Assembly: GCA_028711505.1 (NCBI GenBank)
Contig: JAQTSC010000003.1
Span: 9,397-73,396, forward strand
Length of the DNA: 64,000 nt
Reading direction: 5' to 3'
Source of the DNA: Minisyncoccota bacterium
Lineage (GTDB): Bacteria; Patescibacteriota; Minisyncoccia; JAHISW01; Tagabacteraceae
Shown: in pieces, positions 26,504 to 64,000 of the stretch
Layout of the letters: the number at the start of each line of letters is the position of its first letter
Position numbering within the stretch: position 1 is the stretch's first letter
Notes under the pieces: model-generated
What the model saw: the letters and a program-made list of their open reading frames with translations, nothing else
Told to the model about the DNA's origin: nothing
Database searches by the model: none
Made by a program: the position numbers and the translations under genes

Positions 26504-26510
26504 TAAGAAT

Positions 26511-47842: not shown

Positions 47843-47848
47843 TGCGAT

Positions 47849-49330
47849 ATGAAATTTGGGTTTGTTATTTTTTTGTTTTTAGCCGTTCCGCTTTTGGCTT
47901 GCATGCCGCAAGGCGTGGTTTTTGCCGAAAGCGGTATTTTTATTAATGAAATAATGTATGACTTGGAAACGGGAAGCGATGACGGAAGAGAGTGGATTGA
48001 AATTTATAACGGAAGCGGCGTTGAAATTGATTTAAATAATTTCAGAATTTTTGAGGCCGATGTCAGTCATAAAATAATCCCGAAAGAGAAAGGAGAAAGT
48101 CTAATCATTTCATCCGGCGGTTTCGCGGTTGTCGCGGATAACCCCGCAAAATTTTTAATCGATTGGCCCGATTTTGGCGGAATTTTAGGGGACAGCTCTT
48201 TTTCTTTGAGCAACAAGGGAGAAACTCTAATTCTGGAAACTGCCGAACTTATTGATGTGGATAGTTTTGCTTACGCGCCGGAACTTGGCGCAAACGGGGA
48301 TGGAAATTCTCTTCAGAAAAATGGTTTAAACTGGGAGGCTTCATCTCCTACTCCCGGAGACGATAATTCATCGGTGGAACCGATTTCATTACTTGAAGAA
48401 GAGCCGGTTCTTCAGGTGCAGGAAGAAATGGTCAGCGATTCTGCGTTCGTGGCGCTCGTGCCTGAATTTCAGATAAAATCTTACGCGGGGAGCAACAAAA
48501 CGGTTGTTGCCGGAGCGTCCGTTGAATTTCGCGGCAACGGGTACAATGTTGACGGAACCTTACTCCAAAATCCACGCTATCTTTGGAATTTCGGCGATGG
48601 AGAAGTAAAGGACGGGCAAAATATTTTTCATACTTACAGGTATCCGGGAGAATATGTCGCGGCGCTTGATGTTTCTTCTGGCGGCTATTCTAATTTGGAC
48701 ACTCTTTTTGTAAAAGCTCTTCCGAATGAAATTTTCATTTCCGAAATAAAGACAGGAGCGGATTCTTTTGTCGAAATCAGGAATCCGTCAAAAGAAGAAA
48801 TAAATATTTCCGGCTGGCAGATAAAGTCCGGAGTCGATGTTTTTTGTTTCCCTCAGAACAGTTTTATAAGACCTTTAAGTTTTTTGGTCGCGCCTTTGTC
48901 TCTAAAAGAGATTATTTTGCCCGAAGGGAAAGGAAGCGTCAATCTTTTTTATTCAAATGATTACGCGGCGGACAAATTTGAATATAGCGGGAGTTTGGCT
49001 GGCGGGCAAAGTTTTTCCCGACTCTCAAAAGACTCTGCTGTTTTAATGACAAAAGAAACTCCGGGCGCGGAAAATAAACCGGCATCTTCCTTTGCTTCCG
49101 TCGGAGCTGATGGGGATAATCTGCAGGTTGTTTTTCAAAAACAAAAAGAAGCAGCAGCTCCGGAAGAAAAAGAAGAAATTGCTGAAAACGAAAGAGAAAT
49201 TATTTCGGAAAACAACACCGCTGCCGCCGCTATCGCTTCCAAAAAACCGTTTTTTCTCTACTTTTCGCTTGCCGGCGGAATTTCGATTTTAGCGGCTTTG
49301 GGATTTATCGTCATACGCCGCCAAGGTTGA
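47849..49330 (+). CDS. Secreted/surface-anchored protein with two lamin tail domains (LTD)
   Basis: Signal peptide; LTD 1 GIFINEIMYDLETGSDDGREWIEIYNGSGVEIDL; LTD 2 EIFISEIKTGADSFVEIRNPSKEEINISGWQI; C-terminal TM anchor FFLYFSLAGGISILAALGFIVIRRQG. Confidence 0.7.
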   Translation: MKFGFVIFLFLAVPLLACMPQGVVFAESGIFINEIMYDLETGSDDGREWIEIYNGSGVEIDLNNFRIFEADVSHKIIPKEKGESLIISSGGFAVVADNPAKFLIDWPDFGGILGDSSFSLSNKGETLILETAELIDVDSFAYAPELGANGDGNSLQKNGLNWEASSPTPGDDNSSVEPISLLEEEPVLQVQEEMVSDSAFVALVPEFQIKSYAGSNKTVVAGASVEFRGNGYNVDGTLLQNPRYLWNFGDGEVKDGQNIFHTYRYPGEYVAALDVSSGGYSNLDTLFVKALPNEIFISEIKTGADSFVEIRNPSKEEINISGWQIKSGVDVFCFPQNSFIRPLSFLVAPLSLKEIILPEGKGSVNLFYSNDYAADKFEYSGSLAGGQSFSRLSKDSAVLMTKETPGAENKPASSFASVGADGDNLQVVFQKQKEAAAPEEKEEIAENEREIISENNTAAAAIASKKPFFLYFSLAGGISILAALGFIVIRRQG

Positions 49331-50494
49331 TTTTAGAGTTTGTTTAAAATTAAAATCTCTGTTTATTTTTTCCCAAAGCTTGAAAGGGAGCTCGTTCCTT
49401 AATTTGGAATCTTCCATTATCTTTTTTATCGATTTTTTTATTTCAAGAGGGTTTGCCGGGTCTATGAGAATTCCTGTGTCTTTATCTTCTATTATTTCCC
49501 CGACTCCGCCTACGTTTGTCGCGATAACAGGAAGGGAAGCAAGCCCGGCTTCAAGAAGAACATAAGGCAGTCCTTCTTTTAGAGAGGGGAGGATGAAGAT
49601 GTCAAATGCTTTTAAATAAGGATAGGCAGGGTGGAGATTGTTTAAAAGAAAGATTTCTTTTTCCAGTTTGTAGTCTGAAATTTGTCTCTCGAGTTTTTGC
49701 TTGTCTTCTCCAAAACCGATTATTACTGTCTTTATTTTGTTTTTCGTTTCGTTGTTTTCTTTGTGGATGTTCTTTAATTTTAAAATTGCGTCTACGAGAT
49801 ATTTTTGTCCTTTGTTTTTTGTGAATTCGCCTATTGAACCGATTAGGAAATCGTAATCCGAAAGAGGCAATCCGTATTCGGCAATCAATTTTTCTCTGGC
49901 TTTTTGTTTCGTTAGAAATTCATGTTCTTCTATCTTAATGCCGTTATGTATGGCTAGAAGTTTTTTGCGCGGGGCAATTTTGTTTTTTATGGCGATTTTG
50001 CGGTCAAATTCCGAAACGCAAATTATTTTTTTATAAAAGAGACAAGTGATTTTGCTGAAAATTTTTATGAGAAATAATTGCCATTCGGGGCGTTTTTCAT
50101 TAAATGTCCAGCCGTGAGCGGTAAAAACAGAGGGAAGCGAGTAGTGAAAAGATAAAATTTTGTAAATTAATATTGCCGGGCCCGCGATACCGCCGGCTTT
50201 CGGGCTTGAAACGTGGATTATGTCCGGTCGTATCCTGAAGACAAGAGCGACGATTTCGAAAAAAGCCGAAATATCTTTTAAAAAACTTACATCCCGCTGG
50301 AAGTTTTTTATTTCAAAATATGGAATAGCTTTTACAATAATTTTTTTACGCAATTCTCCTCCCGGAGCGCCGGCAACGGATACGTCAAAATTTTCTCTTG
50401 GCAGCGCGGTTGCCAAATCGTAAACGTATTTTCCTGCTCCTGCCCATACGGATTTAGTGATTATATAGAGTATTTTTTTGGGTTTTTTATCCAT
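49289..50494 (-). CDS. Glycosyltransferase family 4 (GT-B, group 1)
   Basis: C-terminal EGLPYVLLEAGLASLPVIATNVGG motif; probable start MDKKPKKILYIITKS at 50494; tracked ORF to 50608 overlaps divergent gene. Confidence 0.7.
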   Translation of the reverse strand: MDKKPKKILYIITKSVWAGAGKYVYDLATALPRENFDVSVAGAPGGELRKKIIVKAIPYFEIKNFQRDVSFLKDISAFFEIVALVFRIRPDIIHVSSPKAGGIAGPAILIYKILSFHYSLPSVFTAHGWTFNEKRPEWQLFLIKIFSKITCLFYKKIICVSEFDRKIAIKNKIAPRKKLLAIHNGIKIEEHEFLTKQKAREKLIAEYGLPLSDYDFLIGSIGEFTKNKGQKYLVDAILKLKNIHKENNETKNKIKTVIIGFGEDKQKLERQISDYKLEKEIFLLNNLHPAYPYLKAFDIFILPSLKEGLPYVLLEAGLASLPVIATNVGGVGEIIEDKDTGILIDPANPLEIKKSIKKIMEDSKLRNELPFKLWEKINRDFNFKQTLKSTLAAYDDKSQSR

Positions 50495-50561
50495 GATTTT
50501 GCTATAATCGTTATTATAATCGCTTTTAGGGCGTTTTAGTATCATTTTTGCTTTGTAAAAC

Positions 50562-51581
50562 ATGGCGAGAGGAAAAAATATAAAAATTAATTTTCCGCTT
50601 ATTAACACCCATACTCACGCGGCAATGACGGCTTTTCGCGGCATGGCGGAAGATCTGCCGTTAAAAGATTGGCTTGAAAAATATATTTGGCCCGCGGAAA
50701 AGGAAAAAGTCCGGCCGGAATTTGTTTATAAAAATACGAAAGAGGCCATTCAAGAGATGAAGAGAAACGGAATAAAAGTTTTTAATGATATGTATTTTTT
50801 CAGCGAAGAAGTTGCCCGTGCGGCTGAGGAAGAAAAAATAATGGCGGTTGTCGGCGAAGTTATCTTGGATTTTCCGACAAACAGCGCCGAAACCCCGGAG
50901 GAAGCGCTTCAAAAAACCGAAAAACTTATTTTGAAATACAAAAATAATCCGTTTATTTCCGTTGCCGCGGCTCCTCATTCAATATATGCGCTTTCGGAAA
51001 AGTGGCTTGTTGAAGCGAAAAATTTGGCAAGAAAATATGGCGTGCTTTATCATATCCATCTTTCCGAAACAAAAAAAGAATTTGACGATTGCGCGGCAAA
51101 GACAGGTTTAACTCCTGTCGGCTACATGAACAAACTCGGGCTTTTGGATGACAAAACGATTTTGGCTCATTGCGTTTGGCTAGCGGATGAAGATATGGAT
51201 ATTCTTTCAAAAACAAAAGCGAACGTCAGTCATTGTCCTTTGAGCAATTTAAAGCTCGGCTCCGGAATTGCGCCGATTTCCAAAATGCTTGAGAAAGGAG
51301 TGAATATCTGTCTGGGCACCGACGGAGCCGCCAGTTCAAACCGATTGGATATCTGGGAAGCGGGGAAATTTGCCGCTCTTCTCCAGAAAGGAATAACCAA
51401 TGACCCGTCAAAGATTTCAGCGAAGGATGTAATGGAAATGATGAGCGTAAACGGGTTAAAGGCGTTGGGTATAAGCGAATTTGAAGGGAAAGGCGTCGCG
51501 GAAATGAAAAACGAAATTGAAAACTCAGGCGATTTTTCGCAGCTTTATGAGCTTGGATCCGGAGAAATTGATTTTCATTGA
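50562..51581 (+). CDS. Amidohydrolase-family metal-dependent deaminase (MtaD/SsnA/guanine-deaminase-like)
   Basis: INTHTHAAMTAFRG metal-binding HxH motif; HIHLSE and CLGTDGAAS downstream motifs. Confidence 0.6.
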   Translation: MARGKNIKINFPLINTHTHAAMTAFRGMAEDLPLKDWLEKYIWPAEKEKVRPEFVYKNTKEAIQEMKRNGIKVFNDMYFFSEEVARAAEEEKIMAVVGEVILDFPTNSAETPEEALQKTEKLILKYKNNPFISVAAAPHSIYALSEKWLVEAKNLARKYGVLYHIHLSETKKEFDDCAAKTGLTPVGYMNKLGLLDDKTILAHCVWLADEDMDILSKTKANVSHCPLSNLKLGSGIAPISKMLEKGVNICLGTDGAASSNRLDIWEAGKFAALLQKGITNDPSKISAKDVMEMMSVNGLKALGISEFEGKGVAEMKNEIENSGDFSQLYELGSGEIDFH

Positions 51582-51650
51582 CACGGCGCGGTTCAGATAG
51601 TAGTTTTACAATAGCTCTTTATATTAAAAAAGAAAGCGAGGTGCTAAAAA

Positions 51651-52082
51651 ATGCTGAATATGATTCTTTTTGATACGAATGCCAGAGAAGGCGAAATTCT
51701 TTTCTTGTTGGCCAGCCGCGGAAGACATGCGGATATCCCAGGCTATCAGTCCGTTCAAAGTTTTTTTCTTGATAAAGGCATTGTGATTTTTTCCCGGCTT
51801 GATTGTTCCCCCGCGGATTCTTTTAAAGTGGGAGTAGCCGGAAACAGCCTTTTTACAACGTTAACATTTGCTGACGAGATTAAAGATTGGCTTTTGAAGT
51901 GGAAAATTACTTTTGAGCAGGCGCGCTTGGAATTTTTTTCTAAAAAAGAAGCTCGGCGGTACTTTGGCGGGTTAAGAGAAGAAACTGAAAAAAATCGCGG
52001 ATTTAATTTGAGGTGGGTTCGTGAAAAAATATCTCGGTATAAAGAAGCGGAGGAAATAGACCTTGCGAATTTGCGTTCGTGA
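51651..52082 (+). CDS. Hypothetical protein
   Basis: 143 aa, RBS upstream; terminator downstream. Confidence 0.3.
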   Translation: MLNMILFDTNAREGEILFLLASRGRHADIPGYQSVQSFFLDKGIVIFSRLDCSPADSFKVGVAGNSLFTTLTFADEIKDWLLKWKITFEQARLEFFSKKEARRYFGGLREETEKNRGFNLRWVREKISRYKEAEEIDLANLRS

Positions 52083-52117
52083 GTGTTTTGAACACAGGCG
52101 GAAAGCGTAATATAAAA

Positions 52118-52147
52118 GTCCCGGTTTTAGCCGGGACTTTTTTGTTT
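52118..52147 (+). terminator. Rho-independent terminator
   Basis: aaagtcccggttttagccgggacttt hairpin followed by tttg. Confidence 0.55.
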
Positions 52148-52217
52148 TTTGCCTTTTGCTGAAACCCGCGGTCTTTTTAAAAAGTTTACCTTTTGGTAGA
52201 GTAAATATAAGAATATT

Positions 52218-53381
52218 ATGAAAATCCTTATCGCAACCGGTATTTATCCGCCCGATATCGGCGGTCCGGCGGTTATGCTTGAGGCGCTTGCCAGTTCTCT
52301 TGAAGAATCCGGTTTTGAAGTAAAAATTATCACTTATTCCGACAGGGGCGGAATTGAAGGCGGAAAAATTTTTAGGATCTCAAGAAAACTTCCTTCGGCC
52401 GCAAGGTATATCCGGTATTTTTTTAGAATGGCGGGACTTTTAAGGCGAGCGGACATCATTTATGTGACCGACGTTTATAGCGTCGGTTATTTCGCTTATT
52501 TTCTTAAAAAAATATCGGGTAAAAAGTATGTGGTGCGTTTTGCCGGAGACAGCGCGTGGGAAAAAGCGGCTGCGTCCGGGGCAATAAAAGAAAATCTCCT
52601 GGAATTTCAGGAAAAGAAATATGGGAAGGAAATTGAAAAAGCAAAAAATAAAAGAAAAAAAATTCTTCTTTTCGCGGACGGGATAATTTGCGTAAGTGAG
52701 TTTATGAAAAAAATCGCGTTAAAAATCGGAGTGGATGAGAGAAAAATAAAGGTAATCTATAATTCGGCTGATTTTATGGATTGCGGTTCTGACGATACCG
52801 CTGTTTCAATTATAAAAAATAAATACGCTCCGAATGGAGAAAAAATAATTTTAACCGCGTGCAGACTTGTGCCGTGGAAAGGAATAGACGGCGTTATCAA
52901 AGCGATTCCGGAGATAGAGAGAAAAGTCGGTTCCGTGAAGTTTTTAGTTTTGGGTGATGGTCCGGAAAAGGAAAATTTAAAGAGGCTTTCGGAAGAAAAA
53001 AGAATCTCCGGGAAGATTTGTTTTTTGGGGAAAATAGGGAGGGATGATATTTTTGATTATTTCAAAGCCGCCGACGTTTTTGTTTTAAACAGCAAATATG
53101 AAGGTTTTTCTCACACCGTTCTTGAAGCCATGAAAACGGGTGTCCCTGTTGTCGTGTCAAACGAGGGGGGAAATCCGGAAGTTGTCGAAAGCGGGAAAAG
53201 CGGTTTTTTGGTTGAATATAACAATGAAAGCCAGATAGCGGAAGCGATTTCCCGCATCTTGGACGACAAAAAATTGGCCGAAGCTCTTTGCGCCGGAGCC
53301 AAAGAAAGATTGGAAAATTTCAATTGGGGCAATGTTGCGGGAGAAACGATTAAAATTTTTAAAGAGCTATCTTCAAAATGA
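52218..53381 (+). CDS. Glycosyltransferase family 4
   Basis: EGFSHTVLEAMKTGVPVVVSNEGG C-terminal GT4 motif. Confidence 0.8.
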   Translation: MKILIATGIYPPDIGGPAVMLEALASSLEESGFEVKIITYSDRGGIEGGKIFRISRKLPSAARYIRYFFRMAGLLRRADIIYVTDVYSVGYFAYFLKKISGKKYVVRFAGDSAWEKAAASGAIKENLLEFQEKKYGKEIEKAKNKRKKILLFADGIICVSEFMKKIALKIGVDERKIKVIYNSADFMDCGSDDTAVSIIKNKYAPNGEKIILTACRLVPWKGIDGVIKAIPEIERKVGSVKFLVLGDGPEKENLKRLSEEKRISGKICFLGKIGRDDIFDYFKAADVFVLNSKYEGFSHTVLEAMKTGVPVVVSNEGGNPEVVESGKSGFLVEYNNESQIAEAISRILDDKKLAEALCAGAKERLENFNWGNVAGETIKIFKELSSK

Positions 53382-54823
53382 AAGGCATCCTCCTTATAAA
53401 TCCGGCTTTTAATATCGCGAAAGAAAATTACGACAGTTCTGTTTCTGTCGGTCTTTTAAGTATCGCTTCTTATCTTAAAAGCAAAGGTATTCCCGTAAAA
53501 ATTATAGACGCGGCGCGCCAGAAAAACTATCGTAAACTTATTGAAAAAGAAGCCGTAGATTTTGATTATGTCGGGCTTTCCGTGATGACTACGCAAATTC
53601 CTTCCGCTTTTGAGATCGCGGAAATTGTGAGAAAAGTCAATCCTGCGGCGAAAATAGTTTGGGGAGGCCCTCATCCGACTTTTTTCGCGAGACAGACAGC
53701 GGAGAATTCTCTTGTTGATATCGTATGCAACGGAGAAGGCGAGGAAGTGGCTTATGAAATTTTAAGCGGGAAAGAATTAAAAAGCATAAACGGTATCGTT
53801 TTTAAGGATAACGCCGACGTTATTGTTAACCCGCCGCACGAACTTCACGATCCTTCAAAAATGCCTCTTTTTAACTGGGATTTGATTGAAGAAGATGTCC
53901 TTAAAAATTTGAAACTTATCCCGTCTCTTACTTCGCGCGGATGCCCTCATCGCTGCACTTTCTGTATCAATGCCATTTTAAAAAATAAATGGAGGCCGAG
54001 AACTGTTGATCAAGTGCTTGATGATTTGCGAAAAATAAAATCAAAGAAGTTTTTTCAGGGAAAAAATTTGAGGTTTTGGGATGAGAATTTTTTCGTGGAC
54101 ATAATCCGCGCCAAAAAGATAATAGAAGGAATTATCAGGGAAGACATTATAATTCCTTGGGAGACGACAGTCCGCGCCAATTATCTGCAAAACGGCATGA
54201 TTGACGATGATTTTTTAAAAAAATTAAAGCAATCGGGATGCTATCTTTTGTCGTTTGGAGCGGAATCCGGCTGCCCGAGAATGCTTAATGTGATGAAAAA
54301 GGATATTTCCCCGGAAGATATTTTAAGAGCGGCGGAGATGAGCTTGCGGCATGGAATTGTTCCCCAGTTTTCGTTTATGATAGGCCTTCCCGGGGAGAGC
54401 AAAAGCGATATGTTTGCGACCTTAAGGCTTATAGATAAATTGGTAAAATTCGGCGATAAAATCCAGATTTTGGGGCCGCAGGCCTTCCGTCCGTACCCCG
54501 GCTCGGAACTTTATGAGGAGTGTTTGAAAGCCGGCTGGAAAGAGCCCCTATCGCTTGAAGAATGGGGAAATCTGGCAAAAGACGAGCTGAATTATCTTTC
54601 GGTAAAAAATTTTCCATGGGTGAAAGACAAAGATTTTGTGGAATCAATGGAAGCGTATGTGAGGTTCGGGGCCCACTCTTTCAAAAGCGCCATCGGTTCT
54701 TCGGTAAAAGCCCCGTTTTTTATAAAGCTTGGCTTTGTTTTGCTTTGCAAGTTCAGATGGAAGCTTAAATTTTTCTTTTTTCCGTTTGAATTCAAAATAG
54801 CCAAAATGTTTTTAACGAAATAA
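53378..54823 (+). CDS. B12-binding (cobalamin) radical SAM enzyme
   Basis: N-terminal B12-binding fold followed by radical SAM core with CPHRCTFC (CxxxCxxC). Confidence 0.75.
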   Translation: MKGILLINPAFNIAKENYDSSVSVGLLSIASYLKSKGIPVKIIDAARQKNYRKLIEKEAVDFDYVGLSVMTTQIPSAFEIAEIVRKVNPAAKIVWGGPHPTFFARQTAENSLVDIVCNGEGEEVAYEILSGKELKSINGIVFKDNADVIVNPPHELHDPSKMPLFNWDLIEEDVLKNLKLIPSLTSRGCPHRCTFCINAILKNKWRPRTVDQVLDDLRKIKSKKFFQGKNLRFWDENFFVDIIRAKKIIEGIIREDIIIPWETTVRANYLQNGMIDDDFLKKLKQSGCYLLSFGAESGCPRMLNVMKKDISPEDILRAAEMSLRHGIVPQFSFMIGLPGESKSDMFATLRLIDKLVKFGDKIQILGPQAFRPYPGSELYEECLKAGWKEPLSLEEWGNLAKDELNYLSVKNFPWVKDKDFVESMEAYVRFGAHSFKSAIGSSVKAPFFIKLGFVLLCKFRWKLKFFFFPFEFKIAKMFLTK

Positions 54824-54830
54824 AACGCCG

Positions 54831-55934
54831 ATGATTGTTTTAATGATAAGCACGGACAGAAATATTTTTGATAAAGATTCCGGAGTCAGAAACCGGATGA
54901 TTGAATATGGGGGGCTTATCGATGAATTGAATATAATCGTTTTCTCTCGAGGGGAGAAATTAGGAAAACAAACTTTCGGCAATGTTTCTGTTTATCCGAC
55001 GAATTCAAAGAGCCGATGGTTTTATGTTTTTGACGCGATAAAGACCGGAAAGAAAATTAAAAAACCGGATTTGATAACTTCTCAGGACGCTTTTGAGTGC
55101 GGATTGGCGGGTTGGCGGCTCTCGAAATATTTTAATACCAAGCTGCAGCTGCAAATTCACTCGGATTTTTTAAGCCCGTATTTTCGCAAGGAGTCGCTTT
55201 TAAACCAAGCACGGGTTTTTATAGCCGAATTTTTGATTTCTCGGGCTTGCTGCGCGCGCGCCGTAAGCCGCCGCATAAAAGAATCGCTCAAATTAAAATT
55301 TAAGAATGAAAATTTAAGGATAGAAACAATCCCTGTTTTTGTCGACGTCCAGAAAATTAAAGACGCGGAGATTAGAATTGATATTCGCAAAAAATATCCT
55401 CAATTTGATTTTGTGATTTTGATGGCAAGCAGGTTCAGCCGGGAAAAGAATATCGGGCTTGCCATAGACACAATGGCTGAGGTCGTAAAAAAGCATCCGA
55501 AAACAGGTTTGGTCATTGTCGGCAGAGGTCCCGAAGAAAATAATTTAAAATCCAAAATTAAAAGTTTAAATTTAGCGGATAGCGTCGTTTTAGAGCCGTG
55601 GTCGGATGATTTGGTTTCTTATTATAAAACAGCGGATTTATTCTTGCTTACGTCGAATTATGAGGGTTATGGAATGTCGGTTCTGGAGGCAATGTCTTCC
55701 GGATGCCCTGTTTTGATGACAGATGTCGGGTTGGCGGGCGAGGTTTTGATAAACGGGGAAAACGGGGTTGTTATTTCGCCGGGAGATAAAAAAGCTTTGG
55801 TTTCTGCCGTGGATAATTTAATTTCCGACAGAAGCGTTTTGGAAAATTTTAAGAGAAGTTTTATCGCGACGGATTTCAAAAGCAAGAAAGATTATCTTAG
55901 CGCTTATAAAAAATCATGGGAAAATTGCCAGTAA
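54831..55934 (+). CDS. Glycosyltransferase family 4
   Basis: EGYGMSVLEAMSSGCPVLMTDVGLAGEV motif. Confidence 0.8.
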   Translation: MIVLMISTDRNIFDKDSGVRNRMIEYGGLIDELNIIVFSRGEKLGKQTFGNVSVYPTNSKSRWFYVFDAIKTGKKIKKPDLITSQDAFECGLAGWRLSKYFNTKLQLQIHSDFLSPYFRKESLLNQARVFIAEFLISRACCARAVSRRIKESLKLKFKNENLRIETIPVFVDVQKIKDAEIRIDIRKKYPQFDFVILMASRFSREKNIGLAIDTMAEVVKKHPKTGLVIVGRGPEENNLKSKIKSLNLADSVVLEPWSDDLVSYYKTADLFLLTSNYEGYGMSVLEAMSSGCPVLMTDVGLAGEVLINGENGVVISPGDKKALVSAVDNLISDRSVLENFKRSFIATDFKSKKDYLSAYKKSWENCQ

Positions 55935-56983
55935 AAAATCTTTTGTTTATAACTCAAAAGATGGATAAAAACGACGATTTGCTCGGGGTCTATCATGAAT
56001 GGATAAAACAGTTTGCCGGAGAATTTGATTTTGTAAGCGTAATTTGTCTGGAAAAAGGAGAATACGACCTGCTCCCAAACGTAAAAGTTTTTTCTCTTGG
56101 AAAAGAGAGCGGCCGTTCGCGGTTAAAATATATTGTTAATTTTTACAAATACATATGGTCGCTTCGCAATAATTACGACGCGGTTTTGGTTCATATGAAT
56201 AAGGAATATGTTATTTTAGGATGGAAATTTTGGCGGTTGTCCGGAAAGAAAATATTTTTGTGGCATAACCATGCCAAAGGCGGATTTTTTGTGCGTCTAG
56301 CGGTTGTTTTATCGGATAAAGTTTTTTATACGTCATCCGATTCTTTTACCGCGAGATTCAAAAAATCGCGAAAAATGCCTGCCGGGCTTGATACGGAAAA
56401 ATTTAAGCCTTCCGGTTTTGAACCTCACTCTTCGGGTTTTAAGATATTAAGCCTTGGAAGGATATCGCCGGTTAAAAAAACGGAGGTGCTAATTAAAGCG
56501 GCTGAAATTTTGGATAAAAGAGGCGGAGATTTTATTTTGGATATCGCAGGCTCCGCTCCTGAACGCGATGTGCTCTATTTTAATAAGATAAAAAAGGAAG
56601 CCGCCGTTCTTGAGCAGAAAGGGAAGCTGAAATTTTTAGGAAGCGTCAAAAACAGCGTTGCCTCTGATTTGTACGGGAATCATGATGTTTTTGTAAATCT
56701 TACTCCTGCGGGCAGTTTTGATAAAACCGTGATAGAAGCGGCGCTTTGCGGAACTTTGGTCTTGGCCTGCAATAAGGCGTTCGAGCCGCTTCTTACGGAA
56801 GAGTTTCTGTTTAAAGAAGGAGATTCCGCTGATTTGGCGGAAAAGCTTCAAAATGTTTTCGAGCTTATAAGAAGCAACCCCGGACGAGCTGAAAAAATAA
56901 AAAAACGTATGCGCGCCGGCGCGGCCGAAAATCACGGTTTGGATATTTTGATTAAAAAATTAATTGGAAATTTCAATGAATAA
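55916..56983 (+). CDS. Glycosyltransferase (GT-B, group 1)
   Basis: GT-B C-terminal pattern (FDKTVIEAALCGTLVLACN). Confidence 0.6.
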   Translation: MGKLPVKNLLFITQKMDKNDDLLGVYHEWIKQFAGEFDFVSVICLEKGEYDLLPNVKVFSLGKESGRSRLKYIVNFYKYIWSLRNNYDAVLVHMNKEYVILGWKFWRLSGKKIFLWHNHAKGGFFVRLAVVLSDKVFYTSSDSFTARFKKSRKMPAGLDTEKFKPSGFEPHSSGFKILSLGRISPVKKTEVLIKAAEILDKRGGDFILDIAGSAPERDVLYFNKIKKEAAVLEQKGKLKFLGSVKNSVASDLYGNHDVFVNLTPAGSFDKTVIEAALCGTLVLACNKAFEPLLTEEFLFKEGDSADLAEKLQNVFELIRSNPGRAEKIKKRMRAGAAENHGLDILIKKLIGNFNE

Positions 56984-57641
56984 ATTTGCAGATTTGATGA
57001 AAGAGACAATGAAAGGGAAATCTCTCTACAGAATTCTTTTCAATTGGAAAGTGTCCGAAATTTGCGTCGGGCAAACCGGCGTGTGTTTGGAGCTGGCTTC
57101 CGGTAAAAAACCGGCAAGTTATTACAGGTATTGGAAAATAAACTCCCAAGAGATTATCCGAGTTGATATAAATCCCGAGGCGAAACCGGACATAATTGCC
57201 GATTTGAACGAAACGCTGCCTTTTTCTGACGATTATGCCGATAATGTTTTTCTTTTTAATTCTCTTTATCTTTTAAATAAGCCGGAAGAATTTGTCGGAG
57301 AAGTTTTTAGAGTTTTAAAGAAAGGCGGCAGATTTTTTATTACCGCCGAATTTATAAAATCGGAAGAAACAAACGCCAATGATATCGGGAGATTTACTTC
57401 AAGGCGTCTTAGAAGAATTTTTAACGCAGCCGGTTTTTCAAAAATTGAGATAGTTCCGGTGGGCGAGAGATTTTCAGCCGTAGGCAATTTTTTTGATTTC
57501 ACTTTCGGGCACAGTGCCGTCGCCAATTTTTTTAAAATTTTCTTACGGCTATTTTTTCTCGCCTTAGACGTCCTTATGCCTAAAAAAGTTATGGTCAATT
57601 ATCCCTGTCCTATCTCGTGGATAGTTATCGGAGAAAAATAG
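56964..57641 (+). CDS. Class I SAM-dependent methyltransferase
   Basis: LELASGKKP (motif I-like) and VLKKGGRFFI (motif post II). Confidence 0.55.
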   Translation: MEISMNKFADLMKETMKGKSLYRILFNWKVSEICVGQTGVCLELASGKKPASYYRYWKINSQEIIRVDINPEAKPDIIADLNETLPFSDDYADNVFLFNSLYLLNKPEEFVGEVFRVLKKGGRFFITAEFIKSEETNANDIGRFTSRRLRRIFNAAGFSKIEIVPVGERFSAVGNFFDFTFGHSAVANFFKIFLRLFFLALDVLMPKKVMVNYPCPISWIVIGEK

Positions 57642-57650
57642 CTTAGTCCG

Positions 57651-57678
57651 AAAACCCGTTGAAAAAACGGGTTTTTTA
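57651..57678 (+). terminator. Hairpin terminator/attenuator inside glycan cluster
   Basis: aaacccgttgaaaaaacgggttt followed by ttttat. Confidence 0.45.
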
Positions 57679-57695
57679 TCGTATATTTAAAAAAA

Positions 57696-58489
57696 TGCTT
57701 AAAGAGCGCACAAAGGATTTTTTTTATTTTTTCTTGAACGTTTTGGCGCGTTTTGCCGTCTTTTTTGTCCGTTCTCCTCGCGCGAGTATTTTGATGTACC
57801 ATTCTATTTCCGATAACGGGGTCTTTTTTACGGTTAAGCCGAAAGATTTTGAAAAACAAACCGAGTATCTGAAAAGCTTCGGCTTTAAAATTATTTCTTT
57901 GGCAGAGATGGTTGAAGCGATAAAAAGCCGAAACTTAAAGGACAAAAGCGTTGTTTTAACTTTCGACGACGGATATAAGGATAATTATAAAAACGCCTGG
58001 CCTGTTCTTAAAAAATACGGGTTTCCGGCGGTTATTTTTTTGGCAAGCGATTTTACGGGAAAAAATTTCACCGTCTCATCCGGACAGCAACTCGAAATTC
58101 TTAATGAAGAAGAGATAAAAGAAATGGCCGAGTTTGGGCTTGTAGAATTCGGGTCGCATACGCGCACGCATCCCCGGCTTGAAAAAATATCAGACGAAGA
58201 ATTTGAAAAAGAAATCCGCGAGTCAAAAGAAGCTTTGGAAAAAATAACAGGCAAAAGATGCAGGTTTTTCTCATATCCTAAGGGATATTTCAGGCCGGCC
58301 TTCGGGGAGATTTTAAAAAGGAACGGATTTGAAGCGGCGGTTTCCGTAAAAGAAGGGCTTGTAAGAAGCGAAGACAATTTATTTTTACTCAGAAGAAATT
58401 TTGTTTATTCGGCCGGCGGTTTTTGCCAGTTTGTCGGCAAATTGGGATACAGCGTACCGATTTACAATTTTTTTAAAAAATTTTTTTGA
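57696..58489 (+). CDS. Polysaccharide deacetylase (NodB homology domain)
   Basis: VVLTFDDGYKDNY (TFDDG motif) and HTRTHPRL His motif; start set at ATG 57696 (tracked TTG 57659 lies inside hairpin). Confidence 0.75.
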
Positions 58490-58490
58490 C

Positions 58491-59927
58491 ATGAAAGTTG
58501 TTTTGGCTGTTGTTCCGCGGGCAAGCGGTGAAATAGAAAGAGGAGGACTTCCTTTTTTGGGCGTGGGGTACGTGGCTTCAAGCCTTCTTCTTGACGGCCA
58601 TGACGTAAAAATTCTTGACGCTCACACCTTGAGGCTTACTCCGGAAGAGACAGTGCAAAAAATTCTAGAAATGAATCCCGATGTTTTGGGGTTAAGCGGA
58701 AATACGCACAATAGATTTACCGCAATAGAAGTTATTAAATTGGCAAAGAAACAAAAGCCTAACTTGAAAGTTGTTGTCGGAGGCCCTCACTTCGGTCTTA
58801 CGGGGAAAGACGCCTTAAAGACGGTTTCTGAGATTGATTTTGTGGTAAAAGGCGAAGGCGAGCTTACTGCGCGGGAGCTTCTAAAAAGCGGCTTTAAGGA
58901 AGAAAAATTCCCGGGTATTTTGGGGATCGTCTACCGCGACAAAAACAGAAATATTATTGAAAATTCCGACAGGCCATTTGTTCAGAATTTGGACGATCTG
59001 CCGATGCCGGCTTGGCACCTTTTCGATCTTTCCCGATACAAAGGAACTCCCATAGAAAAGACGGGGATGAAAACAATCGGCATTGTGAGTTCGCGCGGAT
59101 GCCCGAACCAGTGCATTTTTTGTTCGGCGCGCGCCTTTCATCGCGGAACGCTTCGTGTGAGAAGCCCGAAAAATTTCGTTGACGAAATTGAATATCTCCA
59201 AAAAAATTACGGCTATGGAGCTTTCAATTTTTGGGACGACACTTTTTCCATGATACCTTCGCGCGCCGCGGAAATTTGCGAAGAAATTTTACGGCGGAAA
59301 CTTAAAATTTCCTGGTACACTCCGTGCCGCGTGAATACGGTGGACAAAAAACTTTTGGCTTTGATGAAAAAAGCCGGATGCGTGCGCGTCAATTTCGGAA
59401 TAGAATCCGGAAGCCCGAAAATTCTGAAAGTGATGAAAAAAGGCATAACCATGGAACAGGCTCGCGCGGCGATAAAAGCCGCGGTTGAGGTCGGGCTGGA
59501 TATAACTCTGAACTTTTTGGTTGTTTATCCTTATGAGACTTGGGAAGACATAAAAATGACTTCTGCCGCCATAAAGGAATTCCGTCAGCTAAAAAACGTA
59601 AAACCGTCTTACAGCTTTATAATAATTTATCCCGGAACGGAGCTTGAAGAAATAGCGAAAAAAGAGAAAGTAATGCCTGAAAATTTTTCATGGAATTCTC
59701 CTTACAAAAACACGAAAAGAATTGCCGCGGGCGAGGACGAGTCGGTACCTTATTTTGAATGGCCCGGCCTTCCTTTTGAAGCAGTAAAGGCTTTTATGAC
59801 GAAAGATCTTTTGGAAAAAAGGGATATTTTTAAAAGATTTTTGAAGAAAGCGGAAAGGGTGCGCAATTTTGACGATGTAAAAGCTATTTTCAAAGTCGGA
59901 ATCGCCTATTTAAAAACAACAAAATAA
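58491..59927 (+). CDS. B12-binding radical SAM enzyme (second paralog)
   Basis: MKVVLAVVP...DVKILDAH B12-binding fold; CPNQCIFCSA radical SAM cysteine triad; start at ATG 58491. Confidence 0.75.
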   Translation: MKVVLAVVPRASGEIERGGLPFLGVGYVASSLLLDGHDVKILDAHTLRLTPEETVQKILEMNPDVLGLSGNTHNRFTAIEVIKLAKKQKPNLKVVVGGPHFGLTGKDALKTVSEIDFVVKGEGELTARELLKSGFKEEKFPGILGIVYRDKNRNIIENSDRPFVQNLDDLPMPAWHLFDLSRYKGTPIEKTGMKTIGIVSSRGCPNQCIFCSARAFHRGTLRVRSPKNFVDEIEYLQKNYGYGAFNFWDDTFSMIPSRAAEICEEILRRKLKISWYTPCRVNTVDKKLLALMKKAGCVRVNFGIESGSPKILKVMKKGITMEQARAAIKAAVEVGLDITLNFLVVYPYETWEDIKMTSAAIKEFRQLKNVKPSYSFIIIYPGTELEEIAKKEKVMPENFSWNSPYKNTKRIAAGEDESVPYFEWPGLPFEAVKAFMTKDLLEKRDIFKRFLKKAERVRNFDDVKAIFKVGIAYLKTTK

Positions 59928-59928
59928 A

Positions 59929-61773
59929 ATGTGTGGTATTAGCGGATTCAATTTTAACGACAGGGTACTCTTGAAGAAAATGAATATGGCAGTGGCTCAT
60001 CGGGGCCCTGACAAGGAAGGCGTTTGGAATAACGCGGATTTTTCTTTGGGCCATCGCAGACTTTCAATAATTGATTTGTCTGAAAAAGGAGTACAGCCGA
60101 TGTTTAATGAAAATAAGACCGTCGCGATGGTTTTTAACGGGGAGATTTATAATTACCGCGAACTGAGAGAAGAATTGGAGCGGAAAGGGCACAGGTTTTT
60201 TTCAAACACAGACTCGGAAGCGATAATACATCTATACGAGGAAAAGGGAGAAAGATGCCTCGAACATCTTGATGGCATTTTTTCTTTCGGGATTTATGAT
60301 TTGGAAAAGAAGATTTTTTTCGCCAGCCGCGACCCAATGGGCATAAAACCTTTTTATTATTTTTGCGGCGGAGGAAAATTCATTTTTTCATCCGAAATAA
60401 AAGCGATATTGGAACATCCCGTAAACCGGGAAATCGACAAAAGGGCGTTAAGCTCTTATTTCCATTTGTTTTATCCTTTGGCTCCTCTCACTATCTATAA
60501 AGATATTTTTAAACTCCCGGCCGGGCATTTTTTGATTTACAAAGACGGAGATGTTCGTATTGAGAGATACTGGAAGCCTTCAAATAAAGGGAAGATAACC
60601 GACAAAAATGAAATCAAAAAAATATTGTTTGATTTGACCGAAAAAGCGGTTGAAAAACAAATGATTTCCGACAGGCCGTTGGGTGTTTTTTTAAGCGGGG
60701 GAATAGATTCAACCGCGGTCGCGGCTTTGGCTAAAAAATTCAGCTCCGGAAAATTAAAGACTTTTTCGGTTGGTTTTGAATCTCAAGAAGAAAAAGAAAA
60801 ATATAATTTTGATTTTGAAATGGCAAGACGCGTCAGCCGGGATTTCGGAACCGAGCATCATGAAATTATGATTTCGGGAAAAGACGCTTTGTCCGCGCTG
60901 GAGAAAGTTTCTTGGCATATGGATGAGCCGATTTCAAATCATACGCAGTCTATTACGTATTTGCTTTCGGAAATCGCAAAAAAAGAAGTCGCCGTAGTTT
61001 TGGGCGGCGATGGCGGAGATGAAATTTTTGCCGGATATCCCCGGTATAGATTGAATCTTTTTTTGGACAAATATCAAAAAATTCCAGTTTTTTTGCGCAA
61101 ACAGATTTTAAATAAAATTATAAGCCGCGTTAAAAATCCGGATTTAGCGAGAAAAATTGAGAAGCTGCCTGGAGTGGACAGATACATGCTTTTTATGTCG
61201 CAAAAGGACGAATTTTTAAAACAAGCGATAAAAAGCGAATGGCTGGAGGACAAATGGCATTTTGATAAATTTGAAAAAGATTATTCGCGGCTTTCCGAGT
61301 TTTCTTCTGGAGAAACGCTTATGCTTATGGATTTGGAAAATTGGCTTCCGGAAGAATCTCTTATGCGTACCGATAAAACCACCATGGCATGGGGTCTTGA
61401 AGAAAGAGTTCCTCTGCTTGACAGGCATCTTGTTGAGTTCAGTTTTAAAATTCCGGATTATTACAAAATAAATCGTTCCGGCGGAAAAAAGATTTTTATA
61501 GAAGCGATGGGAAGTCTTTTGCCGGACTACGTGGTTAACGCGCCTAAAAGAGGATGGTTTTCGCCGATGGCCAAATGGCTCAGAAGCGATCTCAAAGAAT
61601 TCGCTTATGAAGTTTTGTCTCCCGGGTATTGTTCCGGCGGGGAAGAGTTTCTTGATTTTGAAGCGGTTAGAAAAATTTTAGACGATCATATTTCTAAAAG
61701 AAAATATAACCTTGCGCTTATCTGGTCCCTGATCACTTTTCAAATGTGGCGCAGGAATTTTATGCGCAAATAA
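59929..61773 (+). CDS. Asparagine synthetase B-type glutamine amidotransferase (WbpS-like)
   Basis: N-terminal MCGISGF Ntn-nucleophile Cys, SGGIDSTAVAAL PP-loop. Confidence 0.85.
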   Translation: MCGISGFNFNDRVLLKKMNMAVAHRGPDKEGVWNNADFSLGHRRLSIIDLSEKGVQPMFNENKTVAMVFNGEIYNYRELREELERKGHRFFSNTDSEAIIHLYEEKGERCLEHLDGIFSFGIYDLEKKIFFASRDPMGIKPFYYFCGGGKFIFSSEIKAILEHPVNREIDKRALSSYFHLFYPLAPLTIYKDIFKLPAGHFLIYKDGDVRIERYWKPSNKGKITDKNEIKKILFDLTEKAVEKQMISDRPLGVFLSGGIDSTAVAALAKKFSSGKLKTFSVGFESQEEKEKYNFDFEMARRVSRDFGTEHHEIMISGKDALSALEKVSWHMDEPISNHTQSITYLLSEIAKKEVAVVLGGDGGDEIFAGYPRYRLNLFLDKYQKIPVFLRKQILNKIISRVKNPDLARKIEKLPGVDRYMLFMSQKDEFLKQAIKSEWLEDKWHFDKFEKDYSRLSEFSSGETLMLMDLENWLPEESLMRTDKTTMAWGLEERVPLLDRHLVEFSFKIPDYYKINRSGGKKIFIEAMGSLLPDYVVNAPKRGWFSPMAKWLRSDLKEFAYEVLSPGYCSGGEEFLDFEAVRKILDDHISKRKYNLALIWSLITFQMWRRNFMRK

Positions 61774-61774
61774 A

Positions 61775-63490
61775 ATGAATAATAGAAAAATAAAAATTTT
61801 GCTTATATCAATTCTTGCCTTCGCTTTTTTCTTGAGAATAAGCGGCATGTTTTTCGGTTTGCTTTCGGGTGATGTTTATGGCGATGAGATAGGGAATACT
61901 ATTGCCGCTTTCAAAATAATGGAAGCAAAAAGCCCCGTTTTCGTTTTTGGCATGAAGAATTACCTGCCGCCTCTTTTCAGCTATCTTCTGGTCCCGGCGT
62001 ACGGCCTTATTGGAATTTTTGGAATGATTTTCCATGTTTTCGCGAGCATCGCCGATTTTAAGGAATTCGTGATTTTATACAAAGAATGGTTTTTGGCGCC
62101 AAGCAGGATTTTGTCTGCAATTTTCGGTATGGGAACGGTTTATTTGGTTTATCTTTTTGCCAGAAAACTTTTTGATGAAAAAATAGCGCTTTTTTCGGCA
62201 TTTCTTTTGGCTGTGGATTTTCTTCATTTGCATGAATCTCAGATTGGGCACATTTGGTCGCCGATAACTTTTTTTACCGTTTTTTGCGCCTACAGTTTTT
62301 TTAATCTTTATCTCACGGGAGAAAGGAAATGGTATTTTTTTTCCGCCGCGGCTTTGGGATTGGGTTATGCCATAGGGCAGCTCCCGATAATATTTTATCC
62401 ATTTTTCGTTTTAGCTCATTATTTTTACGTCAAAAAAATACGAGAAAAATTTTTAAATAAGAAATTTATTGAAGCCAACATTTGGTTGATTGCATTGCTT
62501 TTCGTATTCACGCTTTTGAATTTCTATACGATTTACAAGCATTTTTACGATGTGATATTGGCTGTTTTAGAGATTGTCGGTTTGGGCGATTTTGCCGTAT
62601 CAATATTTCCGCGGACCATTCCCGGCATCGCGCACAGTTTTTCGCTTGTCGGCAATTGGGTTTATGCGGCTAAGACTTTATTTTACGATTCGCCCGTGTT
62701 TTTTACGGCGGCGTTTTTTGGCGGATTCTTTCTTCTTAAAAAAAATAAATTTAGCGCGCAAAATGTTTTTCTTCTGTTTTTTCCTGTTTATAATCTCATT
62801 GTCTTCTCTTTTTTGTTCTATAATTTTACATACAGGTATGTTTTGCCGCTTGTTCCTTTTATCGCCATTATCGTTTCTTTTTTCGTCTTTTACGCATCCG
62901 ACAATCTTTTTGCCGGAACCAAGAAAGCGTTTGCGTTGCCATTGTTGATGCTTGCGGTATCTTCTTATTCCATGGCGGCCAGCCTGCCATATTCTTTTTT
63001 GCTGACTAAACCTTACACGGTAGATGAAGCGGTTGTCTGGGTTTATGAAAATGTGCCCTCGGGAAATCGCGTGGTTTCCGACGTGTACCTGAATAGCAAC
63101 AGAGAAAGTTTGGAATTTTTGAAAGAATACAATCAATTTAATTGGCTTGATACAAGAAAAAATTATCTTCTCGGCTTGAATGATGCGGAATATCCCCGGC
63201 CGAATTATTTTTTAATTGATACGAATCTAACTGATGTTTTTTCGCTGCCTCAAAAAGAGAAGCGCGCTGATTATGCCCTGGTCTTCTTTTACGAGGAAAA
63301 AGACAAAAAAGAAAAAATAAAAATAGTCGAGACTTTCGGAAAGAGCGAACTTGCGGCGTTTTTTTATCCGAAAGAAGGAGGAGAATTTACAAAAAGTCTG
63401 CTCAACATAAGACCGCATTTTTTCCTCAAAAATATTTTGGAAACGCGGCAAATAGGTCCGAATGTTGAAATCTACAAATTCTTAAAATAA
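61775..63490 (+). CDS. Polytopic membrane glycosyltransferase, ArnT/PMT-like (GT39/GT83)
   Basis: 571 aa, more than 10 TM helices, N-terminal periplasmic-loop Asp/Glu motif (GDVYGDEIGN), overall GT-C-like topology. Confidence 0.5.
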   Translation: MNNRKIKILLISILAFAFFLRISGMFFGLLSGDVYGDEIGNTIAAFKIMEAKSPVFVFGMKNYLPPLFSYLLVPAYGLIGIFGMIFHVFASIADFKEFVILYKEWFLAPSRILSAIFGMGTVYLVYLFARKLFDEKIALFSAFLLAVDFLHLHESQIGHIWSPITFFTVFCAYSFFNLYLTGERKWYFFSAAALGLGYAIGQLPIIFYPFFVLAHYFYVKKIREKFLNKKFIEANIWLIALLFVFTLLNFYTIYKHFYDVILAVLEIVGLGDFAVSIFPRTIPGIAHSFSLVGNWVYAAKTLFYDSPVFFTAAFFGGFFLLKKNKFSAQNVFLLFFPVYNLIVFSFLFYNFTYRYVLPLVPFIAIIVSFFVFYASDNLFAGTKKAFALPLLMLAVSSYSMAASLPYSFLLTKPYTVDEAVVWVYENVPSGNRVVSDVYLNSNRESLEFLKEYNQFNWLDTRKNYLLGLNDAEYPRPNYFLIDTNLTDVFSLPQKEKRADYALVFFYEEKDKKEKIKIVETFGKSELAAFFYPKEGGEFTKSLLNIRPHFFLKNILETRQIGPNVEIYKFLK

Positions 63491-63493
63491 TTT

Positions 63494-64000
63494 ATGTCGG
63501 AAGAAAAAACTATCAAAAATAATGAAATTTCCGGTTCGGCTGTCAAAGACGTGTATTGGGGAGAGTTTTCCGAAGAACTTCTTGATAAAATAATCGGATG
63601 TTATCAATCGGGCCGGTTTGATGATGCGGATGATATTATAAAATCTTTGGATCGGGAAGATTTTATTTTCGGGCTTGGCAGAAGCGATTTTCTTTTTTAT
63701 CTTCCTCTTGGCAAGACAAGCAAAGTTTTAGACGTGGGGTGCGGGCTTGGCGTTCATTCGTTTAACGCGGCTAAAATTGCCGGAGAAGTATACGGCTGCG
63801 ATCTTTCAAAAAAAAGAGTTGATTTTTGTAATTTGAGAAAACAGCGCGAAGAAGTTAAAAATATCAGTTTTTTGCATTCGGATATTGAAAATTTGCCGTT
63901 TGAGTCTGAAACTTTCGATGCAGTAATACTTAACGGAGTCGTTGAATGGCTAGGAGAAAAAAATAAAAATAAAAATCCTCGCGATGACCAGATTGAAGAT
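63494..64000 (+). CDS. Class I SAM-dependent methyltransferase (3' end outside window)
   Basis: ATG 63494; VLDVGCGLGVHSF motif I and DAVILNGVVEWL motif; no stop before window end. Confidence 0.55.
   Translation, partial: MSEEKTIKNNEISGSAVKDVYWGEFSEELLDKIIGCYQSGRFDDADDIIKSLDREDFIFGLGRSDFLFYLPLGKTSKVLDVGCGLGVHSFNAAKIAGEVYGCDLSKKRVDFCNLRKQREEVKNISFLHSDIENLPFESETFDAVILNGVVEWLGEKNKNKNPRDDQIED

Follow-up and report, generated by a model that had tools for sequence, protein, structure and literature searches.

Background

Several described systems in which glycosyltransferases (GTs) work together with a class B radical S-adenosylmethionine (SAM) enzyme or with an AsnB-type amidotransferase can be compared with the locus analysed here. 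It lies in a stretch of 64,000 nucleotides of contig JAQTSC010000003.1 from a Minisyncoccota bacterium (this whole stretch is called the window in the following) and encodes two class B radical SAM proteins, rSAM-1 (53378-54823, + strand) and rSAM-2 (58491-59927, + strand), within an operon of glycan genes. We found that rSAM-1 and the GT4-family glycosyltransferases around it, in the order GT4b-rSAM-1-GT4c-GT4d, form a syntenic core module in at least 80 species-level genomes of the Candidate Phyla Radiation (CPR).

One parallel is the HpnI-HpnK-HpnJ pathway of bacteriohopanetetrol cyclitol ether, where a glycosyltransferase puts N-acetylglucosamine (GlcNAc) on a membrane-bound acceptor, a deacetylase frees the amine and a radical SAM enzyme with a B12 domain modifies the sugar, and the genes of our locus suggest a similar series of roles. 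However, HpnI is a GT2 enzyme and HpnK is YdjC-like, whereas here the corresponding proteins are of the GT4 and NodB types and there are no hopanoid genes; furthermore, the radical SAM gene is here placed between the successive glycosyltransferase steps of a multi-GT operon.

In moenomycin biosynthesis the AsnB-type amidotransferases MoeF5 and MoeH5 make carboxamides, in combination with a lipid-linked glycan and the class B enzyme MoeK5. The glycan is built on a lipid at the membrane and MoeK5 C-methylates a uronic-acid-derived sugar in it (MoeK5 is cited in PMC9204698), which resembles the pairing of rSAM-2 with AsnB. Nevertheless, moenomycin is an actinomycete secondary metabolite carried on a phosphoglycerate-isoprenoid lipid, and the likeness is one of gene roles. 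The aminoglycoside enzymes GenK and GenD1 (C-methylases) and AprD4 (a diol dehydratase) are also radical SAM enzymes of the class B type, and they act on glucosamine-type residues supplied by a glycosyltransferase and a deacetylase, as may be the case here. However, their identity to our proteins is about 20%, AprD4 works without cobalamin and their substrates are soluble pseudo-oligosaccharides. Among solved proteins, the glutamine C-methylase MgmA/QCMT (PDB 9ccb; PMC12931638) comes closest to rSAM-1 in both structure and sequence (template modelling (TM) score 0.73) and shares with it a compact class B architecture of about 450 aa, but the substrate of MgmA is a protein, the identity is 20% and rSAM-1 scores 99 bits against the TIGR04014 cut-off of 360.

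Regarding the general gene content, Wzx/Wzy O-antigen or capsular polysaccharide loci and XrtA/PEP-CTERM exopolysaccharide loci share GT4 enzymes (stp2-like), AsnB, a CE4 deacetylase and methyltransferases with our locus. The models of the XrtA/PEP-CTERM system stay below their cut-offs here (eps_aminotran_1 458 against 817, stp2 120-122 against 409 and pepcterm_polyde 20 against 276). To our knowledge, a class B radical SAM gene standing in line as a core gene is not a feature of either type of locus. A monoderm envelope is expected of the CPR host.

Conservation of the core module

GT4b (52218-53381, + strand; Glycos_transf_1 1e-45) is the first gene of the operon, and its end shares 4 nt with the beginning of rSAM-1. 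GT4c (54831-55934, + strand; Glycos_transf_1 1e-39) follows rSAM-1 and is in turn followed by GT4d (55916-56983, + strand; Glycos_transf_1 1e-14), of which only the C-terminal GT-B half is recognisable. A divergent glycosyltransferase gene, GT4a (49289-50608, - strand; Glycos_transf_1 1e-33, Glyco_transf_4 7e-23), lies upstream; these coordinates are those of the longest open reading frame (ORF), and translation probably begins at the ATG at 50494, which gives a protein of 401 aa.

A protein search returned orthologues of rSAM-1 in at least 120 clusters (grouped at 90% identity) that are 64-70% identical to the window protein, and all the named clusters come from CPR lineages, namely Magasanik-, Portnoy-, Buchanan-, Terry-, Parcu- and Patescibacteria. 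When a single genome was scanned for each GTDB species, 80 loci with rSAM-1 orthologues were obtained, at 48-70% identity with a median of 65%. We mapped the window proteins onto these 80 loci by tblastn, and the synteny counts obtained under our strict gap criteria are lower bounds. GT4b immediately preceded rSAM-1 in at least 58 of the 74 informative loci (median identity 47%) and GT4c downstream of it, directly or after one extra radical SAM gene, in at least 46 of 66 (median identity 32%). The minus-strand GT4a was found upstream in 48 of 60 informative loci and GT4d downstream in 40 of 56, and the module is usually accompanied upstream by the divergent GT4a and one further GT4. Since the median identity of rSAM-1 exceeds those of GT4b and GT4c, rSAM-1 is the best conserved gene of the module. 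That this gene is conserved beyond the glycosyltransferases it accompanies, and keeps its place midway in the operon, suggests a conserved sugar modification of an unusual kind that is chemically undescribed.

Half of the loci (40/80) contain at least one further B12-type radical SAM gene within 10 kb, and these additional proteins form 13-17 subfamilies at 40-45% identity.

Among the 80 locus records, 28 are third-party bins titled Gammaproteobacteria (13) or Saccharibacteria (15), whose taxonomy is unconfirmed. These metagenome-assembled genomes (L015, L016, L018, L019, L024, L026, L027, L036, L042, L045, L046, L055, L059 and others) show the same synteny, with the typical CPR GT4-rSAM-1-GT4 locus at 53-70% identity, and the labels look unreliable. 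A separate observation concerns a Magasanikbacteria locus (L002, 12531-16428), where CotH kinase/beta-helix, VTC-domain and DUF4956 proteins are inserted right after GT4c.

Class, fold and cofactor of the two radical SAM proteins

Both proteins exceed the Pfam gathering thresholds for the B12-binding domain (PF02310, 32.1 bits) and for the radical SAM domain (PF04055, 29.5 bits). rSAM-1 reaches 69.9 bits (2e-19) and 75.3 bits (8e-21) respectively, and rSAM-2 77.4 bits (1e-21) and 104.9 bits (7e-30). The cluster motifs, CPHRCTFC at aa 189 of rSAM-1 and CPNQCIFC at aa 204 of rSAM-2, are invariant in 28 and 29 homologues. Therefore, the two B12-binding radical SAM enzymes that the initial annotation had recognised by these motifs are borne out by the profiles. 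The two sequences are only 28% identical, which makes them distant paralogues. rSAM-2 probably starts at the ATG at 58491 and not at the TTG at 58401, and the resulting protein matches the 478-aa NCBI protein P0121 at 100%.

The architecture is the same in both cases: an N-terminal Rossmann B12 domain, a TIM-barrel core with the CxxxCxxC motif and a C-terminal helical domain. The AlphaFold2 models have a predicted local distance difference test score of 85 (rSAM-1) and 88 (rSAM-2) and a predicted TM score of 0.86. A Foldseek search with the rSAM-1 model placed MgmA (9ccb, 1e-20) first and then TsrM, OxsB, CysS, AprD4 and TokK, whereas the rSAM-2 model retrieved TsrM, AprD4, OxsB, MgmA and TokK. 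The top ranks hold class B enzymes only (E 1e-16 to 1e-21, TM 0.6-0.75), and MiaB/RimO come next. Both predicted structures thus have the class B fold. In the sequence search against the PDB, rSAM-1 was closest to MgmA/QCMT (84 bits) and rSAM-2 to AprD4 (87 bits; TM 0.75).

Regarding the cofactor, the spacing of the B12-domain motif is kept, as SxL-x26-GG at aa 68-97 of rSAM-1 and SxN-x26-GG at aa 69-98 of rSAM-2; its GG is invariant in both families, and the histidine of the DxHxxG motif is absent from both proteins. This combination fits the base-off, His-off cobalamin binding of all solved class B enzymes, and cobalamin binding by the two proteins is, on these sequence features, likely. Nevertheless, a match to PF02310 is no proof of it, because AprD4 has a B12-like Rossmann domain without cobalamin and the same is true of ArsL homologues (PMC12931638). 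Thus, the Rossmann domains could be free of cobalamin and both proteins ordinary 5'-deoxyadenosyl-radical enzymes, such as diol dehydratases that give deoxy sugars, epimerases or oxidases, and then the cluster would have no need of B12. AprD4 is not only the best PDB sequence match of rSAM-2 but structurally as close to it as any other enzyme, AprD4 and ArsL homologues lie within the network of B12-type radical SAM proteins although they do not bind cobalamin (PMC12931638), and CPR genomes are generally devoid of cofactor synthesis, with no B12 genes in the window. However, the PF02310 scores of 70 and 77 bits stand well clear of the threshold of 32, the motif spacing and the GG are retained, and the similarity to AprD4 spans the radical SAM core only, whereas that to the cobalamin-binding TokK, OxsB and CysS extends over the N-terminal domain. 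We therefore regard a cobalamin-free pair as quite improbable.

Reaction type of the radical SAM proteins

These enzymes belong to a radical SAM superfamily with more than 220,000 members. rSAM-1 and rSAM-2 fall below the cut-off of every curated NCBIfam family and are placed among BchE/HpnJ/PhpK/QCMT-like proteins. HpnJ (TIGR03471) gives 142.8 and 175.3 bits for rSAM-1 and rSAM-2 against a cut-off of 577.6, BchE (TIGR02026) 110.4 and 210.4 against 481, AprD4 (NF033070) 40.6 and 99.8 against 500, and the KedN5-type methylase model 46 and 73 against 700. The best NCBIfam model is HpnJ for rSAM-1 and BchE for rSAM-2, the latter followed by ApyD and then HpnJ. Because no family cut-off is reached, homology leaves the type of reaction undefined. 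The initial annotation had expected C-methylated or otherwise radical-modified sugars; with scores so far below the cut-off of every characterised family, C-methylation is not established.

The nearest relatives mix methylases (MgmA/QCMT, TokK, TsrM and PhpK) with non-methylases (HpnJ, BchE, OxsB and AprD4). The PDB sequence and fold searches confirm the class but do not separate methylase, rearrangement and dehydratase chemistry, and from the sequences C-methylation, ring rearrangement or dehydration could apply. A search of 1.8 billion proteins by their representatives returned a surrounding superfamily of 3405 clusters at E<=1e-30, in which the nearest non-orthologous relatives are unnamed metagenomic proteins, one of them from Omnitrophota, without any functional lead.

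Methyl transfer to an unactivated carbon is, by analogy, the most likely reaction of rSAM-1, with a chance that we put close to even. It is favoured because it is the commonest class B chemistry and has sugar precedents in GenK, GenD1 and MoeK5. In the literature GenK and MoeK5 C-methylate sugars, while HpnJ acts on glucosamine (PMC9204698).

The last enzyme leads to the main alternative, in which rSAM-1, rSAM-2 or both would not methylate but contract a ring as HpnJ and OxsB do, which would yield a contracted or carbocyclic sugar, or cyclise as BchE does, with the glucosamine made by NodB as substrate. The models named above, HpnJ as the best for rSAM-1 and BchE as the best for rSAM-2, speak for it, and so does the gene order, since NodB ends 2 nt upstream of rSAM-2 and recurs near its orthologues, which mirrors HpnI-HpnK-HpnJ; HpnJ itself contracts the ring of a lipid-attached glucosamine (PMC9204698). 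A glucosamine ring contraction of the HpnJ type is therefore attractive for rSAM-2 in particular. On the other hand, the scores reach only between a quarter and a third of what the families require, HpnJ co-clusters with MoeK5 and Fom3 in similarity networks, so that proximity to HpnJ does not predict the chemistry (PMC9204698), and the majority of the characterised class B enzymes are methylases. Taken as a whole, a non-methylating role seems to us unlikely.

The accessory module around rSAM-2

The two radical SAM genes differ in status: rSAM-1 is a highly conserved core gene of CPR genomes, whereas rSAM-2 is an accessory tailoring gene. Orthologues of rSAM-2 were found in only 4-5 of the 80 rSAM-1 loci, and it therefore belongs to the variable part of the operon. 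The accessory module consists of a membrane-anchored methyltransferase, NodB, rSAM-2, AsnB, a polytopic glycosyltransferase of the GT-C type and a second methyltransferase.

The first of these genes encodes a class I SAM methyltransferase (56976-57641, + strand; Methyltransf_11 2e-09) with a C-terminal hydrophobic segment at aa 182-200, and its limits agree with a 221-aa gene call in the locus records L001 and L006. It is followed by the NodB/CE4 polysaccharide de-N-acetylase (57659-58489, + strand; Polysacc_deac_1 1e-32), which has an alternative start at the ATG at 57695; it scores 113 bits with PF01522 against a threshold of 23.1 and its translation holds the TFDD, HTRTH and SYP motifs of a CE4/NodB enzyme. 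Downstream of rSAM-2 lies the AsnB-type glutamine-dependent amidotransferase (59929-61773, + strand), with 478.7 bits for TIGR01536 (cut-off 267.1), Asn_synthase 5e-89 and GATase_7 8e-44. As expected for the AsnB family, it begins with MCGIS, where Cys2 is the nucleophile, and contains the PP-loop SGGIDS.

The next protein is the polytopic glycosyltransferase, PMT_2/ArnT-like (61775-63490, + strand; PMT_2 2.5e-11, PMT 4e-11), which exceeds the gathering scores of both profiles (44.5 against 26.1 for PMT_2 and 43.3 against 22.7 for PMT). It has about 10 hydrophobic segments and an acidic GDVYGDEIGN after the first transmembrane segment, in line with the GT-C type. The last gene, a class I SAM methyltransferase (63494-64000, + strand; Methyltransf_31/11/25 at about 1e-17), is truncated by the end of the window and is 66% identical to the colinear 315-aa gene of L006.

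Regarding the conservation of this module, loci centred on rSAM-2 in metagenomes and assemblies (at least 45% identity) again hold GT4 genes, a small methyltransferase gene and NodB, and AsnB lies within a few genes of rSAM-2 in about 10 of the 14 informative loci. A Portnoybacteria genome (L006/L038) is colinear with the whole cluster of the window. There, the cluster goes on to a methyltransferase gene, an ORF of 281 aa, a pair of GT4 genes, a methyltransferase of the CmcI type and a third B12-type radical SAM gene, which is probably what follows past the end of the window. Two colinear loci also contain fused UDP-sugar dehydrogenase/epimerase genes, and a uronic acid component of the glycan would fit with them. 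The profiles and the synteny thus agree with the initial annotation in seeing a glycan-assembly cluster to which both radical SAM proteins are integral, and one that is not split by unrelated genes in its relatives, as the Portnoybacteria genome is colinear over the whole stretch and the rSAM-2 loci repeat the gene set.

Two further observations were made in these loci. In Portnoybacteria a small GIY-YIG nuclease ORF of 86-94 aa stands between the methyltransferase and NodB (L006 8932-9192, L007 1571-1855) in a cluster that is otherwise colinear. Another CPR glycan locus (L090, 3913-15267) contains two adjacent B12-type radical SAM genes together with an ATP sulfurylase, an APS kinase and two sulfotransferases, and it also encodes a formyltransferase, two SPASM radical SAM proteins and WbqC; this gene set suggests sulfated and formylated glycans.

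Probable membrane association and nature of the product

A GtrA-like four-helix module is fused to GT4b or stands directly before it in 25 of the 80 loci; Wzy_C/TPR proteins occur in 21 loci, and Wzx and Bac_transf in a few. At its C-terminus rSAM-1 has a basic and aromatic tail, which is conserved and in many positions invariant. A membrane-associated glycan pathway is indicated by the GtrA and Wzy_C/Wzx proteins, the hydrophobic tail of the methyltransferase, the GT-C protein and this tail of rSAM-1. The carrier or acceptor may be polyprenyl phosphate, a glycerolipid or a protein; a priming phosphoglycosyltransferase is rarely nearby.

This last point also bears on the possibility that the product is not a surface polymer at all. 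The enzymes could make a single defined glycolipid or a small glycoside (for example a phosphoglycolipid of the moenomycin type, a compound resembling aminoglycosides or a glycoglycerolipid of the membrane), or they could glycosylate and modify a peptide or protein. Apart from the missing priming enzyme in most loci, the GT4 proteins weakly match glycolipid synthase models (MGlcDAG synthase and GlcNAc-PG synthase), the peptide-modifying enzyme ApyD is the second-best model for rSAM-2 and all the characterised sugar-modifying class B enzymes serve secondary metabolism or hopanoids. However, the loci repeatedly contain Wzy_C/TPR, Wzx, GtrA and GT-C genes, the persistence of the module in 80 reduced genomes favours an envelope component over a secondary metabolite, and no precursor-peptide, non-ribosomal peptide synthetase, polyketide synthase or cyclitol genes were seen. 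A product of this kind is therefore very unlikely in our opinion.

The similarity to ApyD was also considered as a sign of a role in the synthesis of ribosomally synthesised and post-translationally modified peptides, and we gave it low weight since genes for a precursor peptide or a peptidase are absent and the glycan setting is the same throughout.

Proposed mechanism

We propose that the locus is one instance of a glycan-assembly operon common to Parcubacteria-type CPR, working as described below, and we give this reading a probability of roughly 60%. On the cytoplasmic side, the GT4 enzymes would assemble an oligosaccharide on a membrane-associated acceptor. Judging by the gene order, rSAM-1 would act on the product of GT4b, and of the upstream GT4, and the extension by GT4c and GT4d would follow. 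At this point, after GT4b and ahead of GT4c, the 5'-deoxyadenosyl radical of rSAM-1 would take a hydrogen from a sugar carbon, to which the enzyme would then most probably move a methyl group from methylcobalamin, leaving a C-methyl branch.

The accessory enzymes would decorate the chain further. NodB may free the amine of an N-acetylhexosamine and rSAM-2 may carry out a second radical modification, whereas AsnB would use ATP and glutamine to turn a carboxylate into an amide, for instance a uronic acid into a uronamide. The class I methyltransferases would attach O- or N-methyl groups, and the GT-C protein would add a sugar outside the membrane from a polyprenyl-phosphate donor. In other lineages the variable extra radical SAM paralogues would diversify the glycan, as happens in O-antigen loci.

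Several results weigh against this proposal. The window lacks a priming phosphoglycosyltransferase, and only 3 of 72 loci have one within 10 kb. The radical SAM proteins stay under every curated family cut-off, with HpnJ and BchE coming nearest, and these two NCBIfam families are non-methylases; moreover, the best PDB sequence match of rSAM-2, AprD4, is a cobalamin-free dehydratase. A search of the whole 64-kb window revealed no cobalamin transport gene, salvage gene or riboswitch. Finally, since AsnB passes the TIGR01536 equivalog cut-off, it might in principle be an asparagine synthetase with a housekeeping role.

Regarding AsnB, a survey of groundwater CPR reported that asparagine biosynthesis is 'sometimes' present (PMC8672522). 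Such calls may partly reflect AsnB homologues of glycan clusters that pass the equivalog cut-off.

Significance

We found no literature that describes the GT4-rSAM-GT4-GT4 module when searching under CPR/Patescibacteria, radical SAM, B12 and glycosyltransferase topics. The enzyme superfamily is known, and glycan clusters with AsnB, CE4 and GT4 enzymes are commonplace. The novelty lies in a class B radical SAM protein as a conserved, in-line core component of a CPR envelope-glycan operon, together with its radiating paralogues. CPR bacteria make up a large and almost uncultured share of bacterial diversity and attach to their hosts by way of the cell surface. The rSAM-1 family is also a well-delimited target for enzymology, because the adjacent GT4 enzymes should supply the substrate.

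If cobalamin is required, corrinoid scavenging would be implied, and an externally supplied cofactor would be added to the dependencies of CPR bacteria. A stronger version, which we consider speculative and rather doubtful, is that a C-branched or carbocyclic sugar, formed by the radical chemistry of rSAM-1, is the hallmark of an envelope glycan common to Parcubacteria-type CPR bacteria and that the enzyme strictly requires cobalamin, a cofactor beyond the synthetic capacity of these organisms, so that a core structural part of the CPR surface would rely on scavenged corrinoid. If this were true, corrinoid from hosts or neighbours would be a concrete metabolic tie behind the symbiotic lifestyle and a practical hint for cultivation.

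Extent of the cluster and other features in the window

The gene calls were taken from the ORF listing and from Pfam and NCBIfam profile searches of the window proteins. Identical proteins are deposited at NCBI under a 'Candidatus Pacebacteria' metagenome-assembled genome, which places the host among the CPR/Patescibacteria. The contiguous operon runs from 52218 to past the end of the window and comprises 11 genes, which overlap or lie no more than 17 nt apart; together with GT4a, these genes form the glycan set. The four GT4 proteins, NodB, the two class I methyltransferases, AsnB and the GT-C protein of the initial annotation all have strong profile support. That annotation had counted 13 consecutive glycan genes, and the count holds for GT4a and from 52218 onwards, but two genes in between have to be left out, an amidohydrolase without a glycan function and an ORF without any signature.

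The first of them (50562-51581, + strand; Amidohydro_1 2e-59) had been taken for a glycan gene. Its best NCBIfam models are TRZ/ATZ hydrolase, 5'-deoxyadenosine deaminase and methylthioadenosine/S-adenosylhomocysteine deaminase, all below their cut-offs, and the 339 aa align to profile positions 69-362 of 444, so that about 55 N-terminal and about 80 C-terminal residues are lacking. By its sequence, this protein is a shortened member of the TRZ/ATZ group (similar to methylthioadenosine, S-adenosylhomocysteine, 5'-deoxyadenosine or guanine deaminases), that is, a nucleoside-deaminase-like protein and not a glycan enzyme. The second is an ORF of 143 aa (51651-52082, + strand) with no Pfam or NCBIfam match. 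An intrinsic terminator at 52114-52141 (+ strand), with a 12-bp stem that contains 6 GC pairs and is followed by a T-run, comes after both and separates them from the operon. Neither has a homologue in the related loci except L001, which is identical to the window; most related loci have a further GT4 between GT4a and GT4b instead, sometimes with a GtrA module. Since they are separated by the terminator and absent from the homologous clusters, we consider both genes to be interlopers.

A deaminase-like amidohydrolase here adjoins a cluster with two SAM-cleaving enzymes, an adjacency that is probably coincidental. The idea that it recycles radical SAM by-products for the cluster was rejected, because of the terminator and of its absence from all the other loci.

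The rest of the window contains housekeeping genes, namely aminoacyl-tRNA synthetases, translation factors, FtsEX, Ddl, tRNAs and tmRNA. Directly upstream of the glycan cluster, the region 46067-49330 (+ strand) encodes a VirD4/TraG-like coupling ATPase with a treble-clef zinc finger and, after it, a surface protein with a lamin-tail domain, PKD and a C-terminal membrane anchor. Two class I synthetases of the window carry foreign hydrolase inserts. In the isoleucyl-tRNA synthetase (14122-17484, + strand; 1120 aa) a His_Phos_1 domain at aa 484-644 (E 6e-37) splits the catalytic domain, and in the leucyl-tRNA synthetase (40914-43766, + strand; 950 aa) a NUDIX hydrolase at aa 380-508 (E 1e-14) follows the editing domain. 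Finally, two tRNA-Thr genes with the anticodons GGT and CGT lie in tandem at 26431-26583 (+ strand), 7 nt apart.

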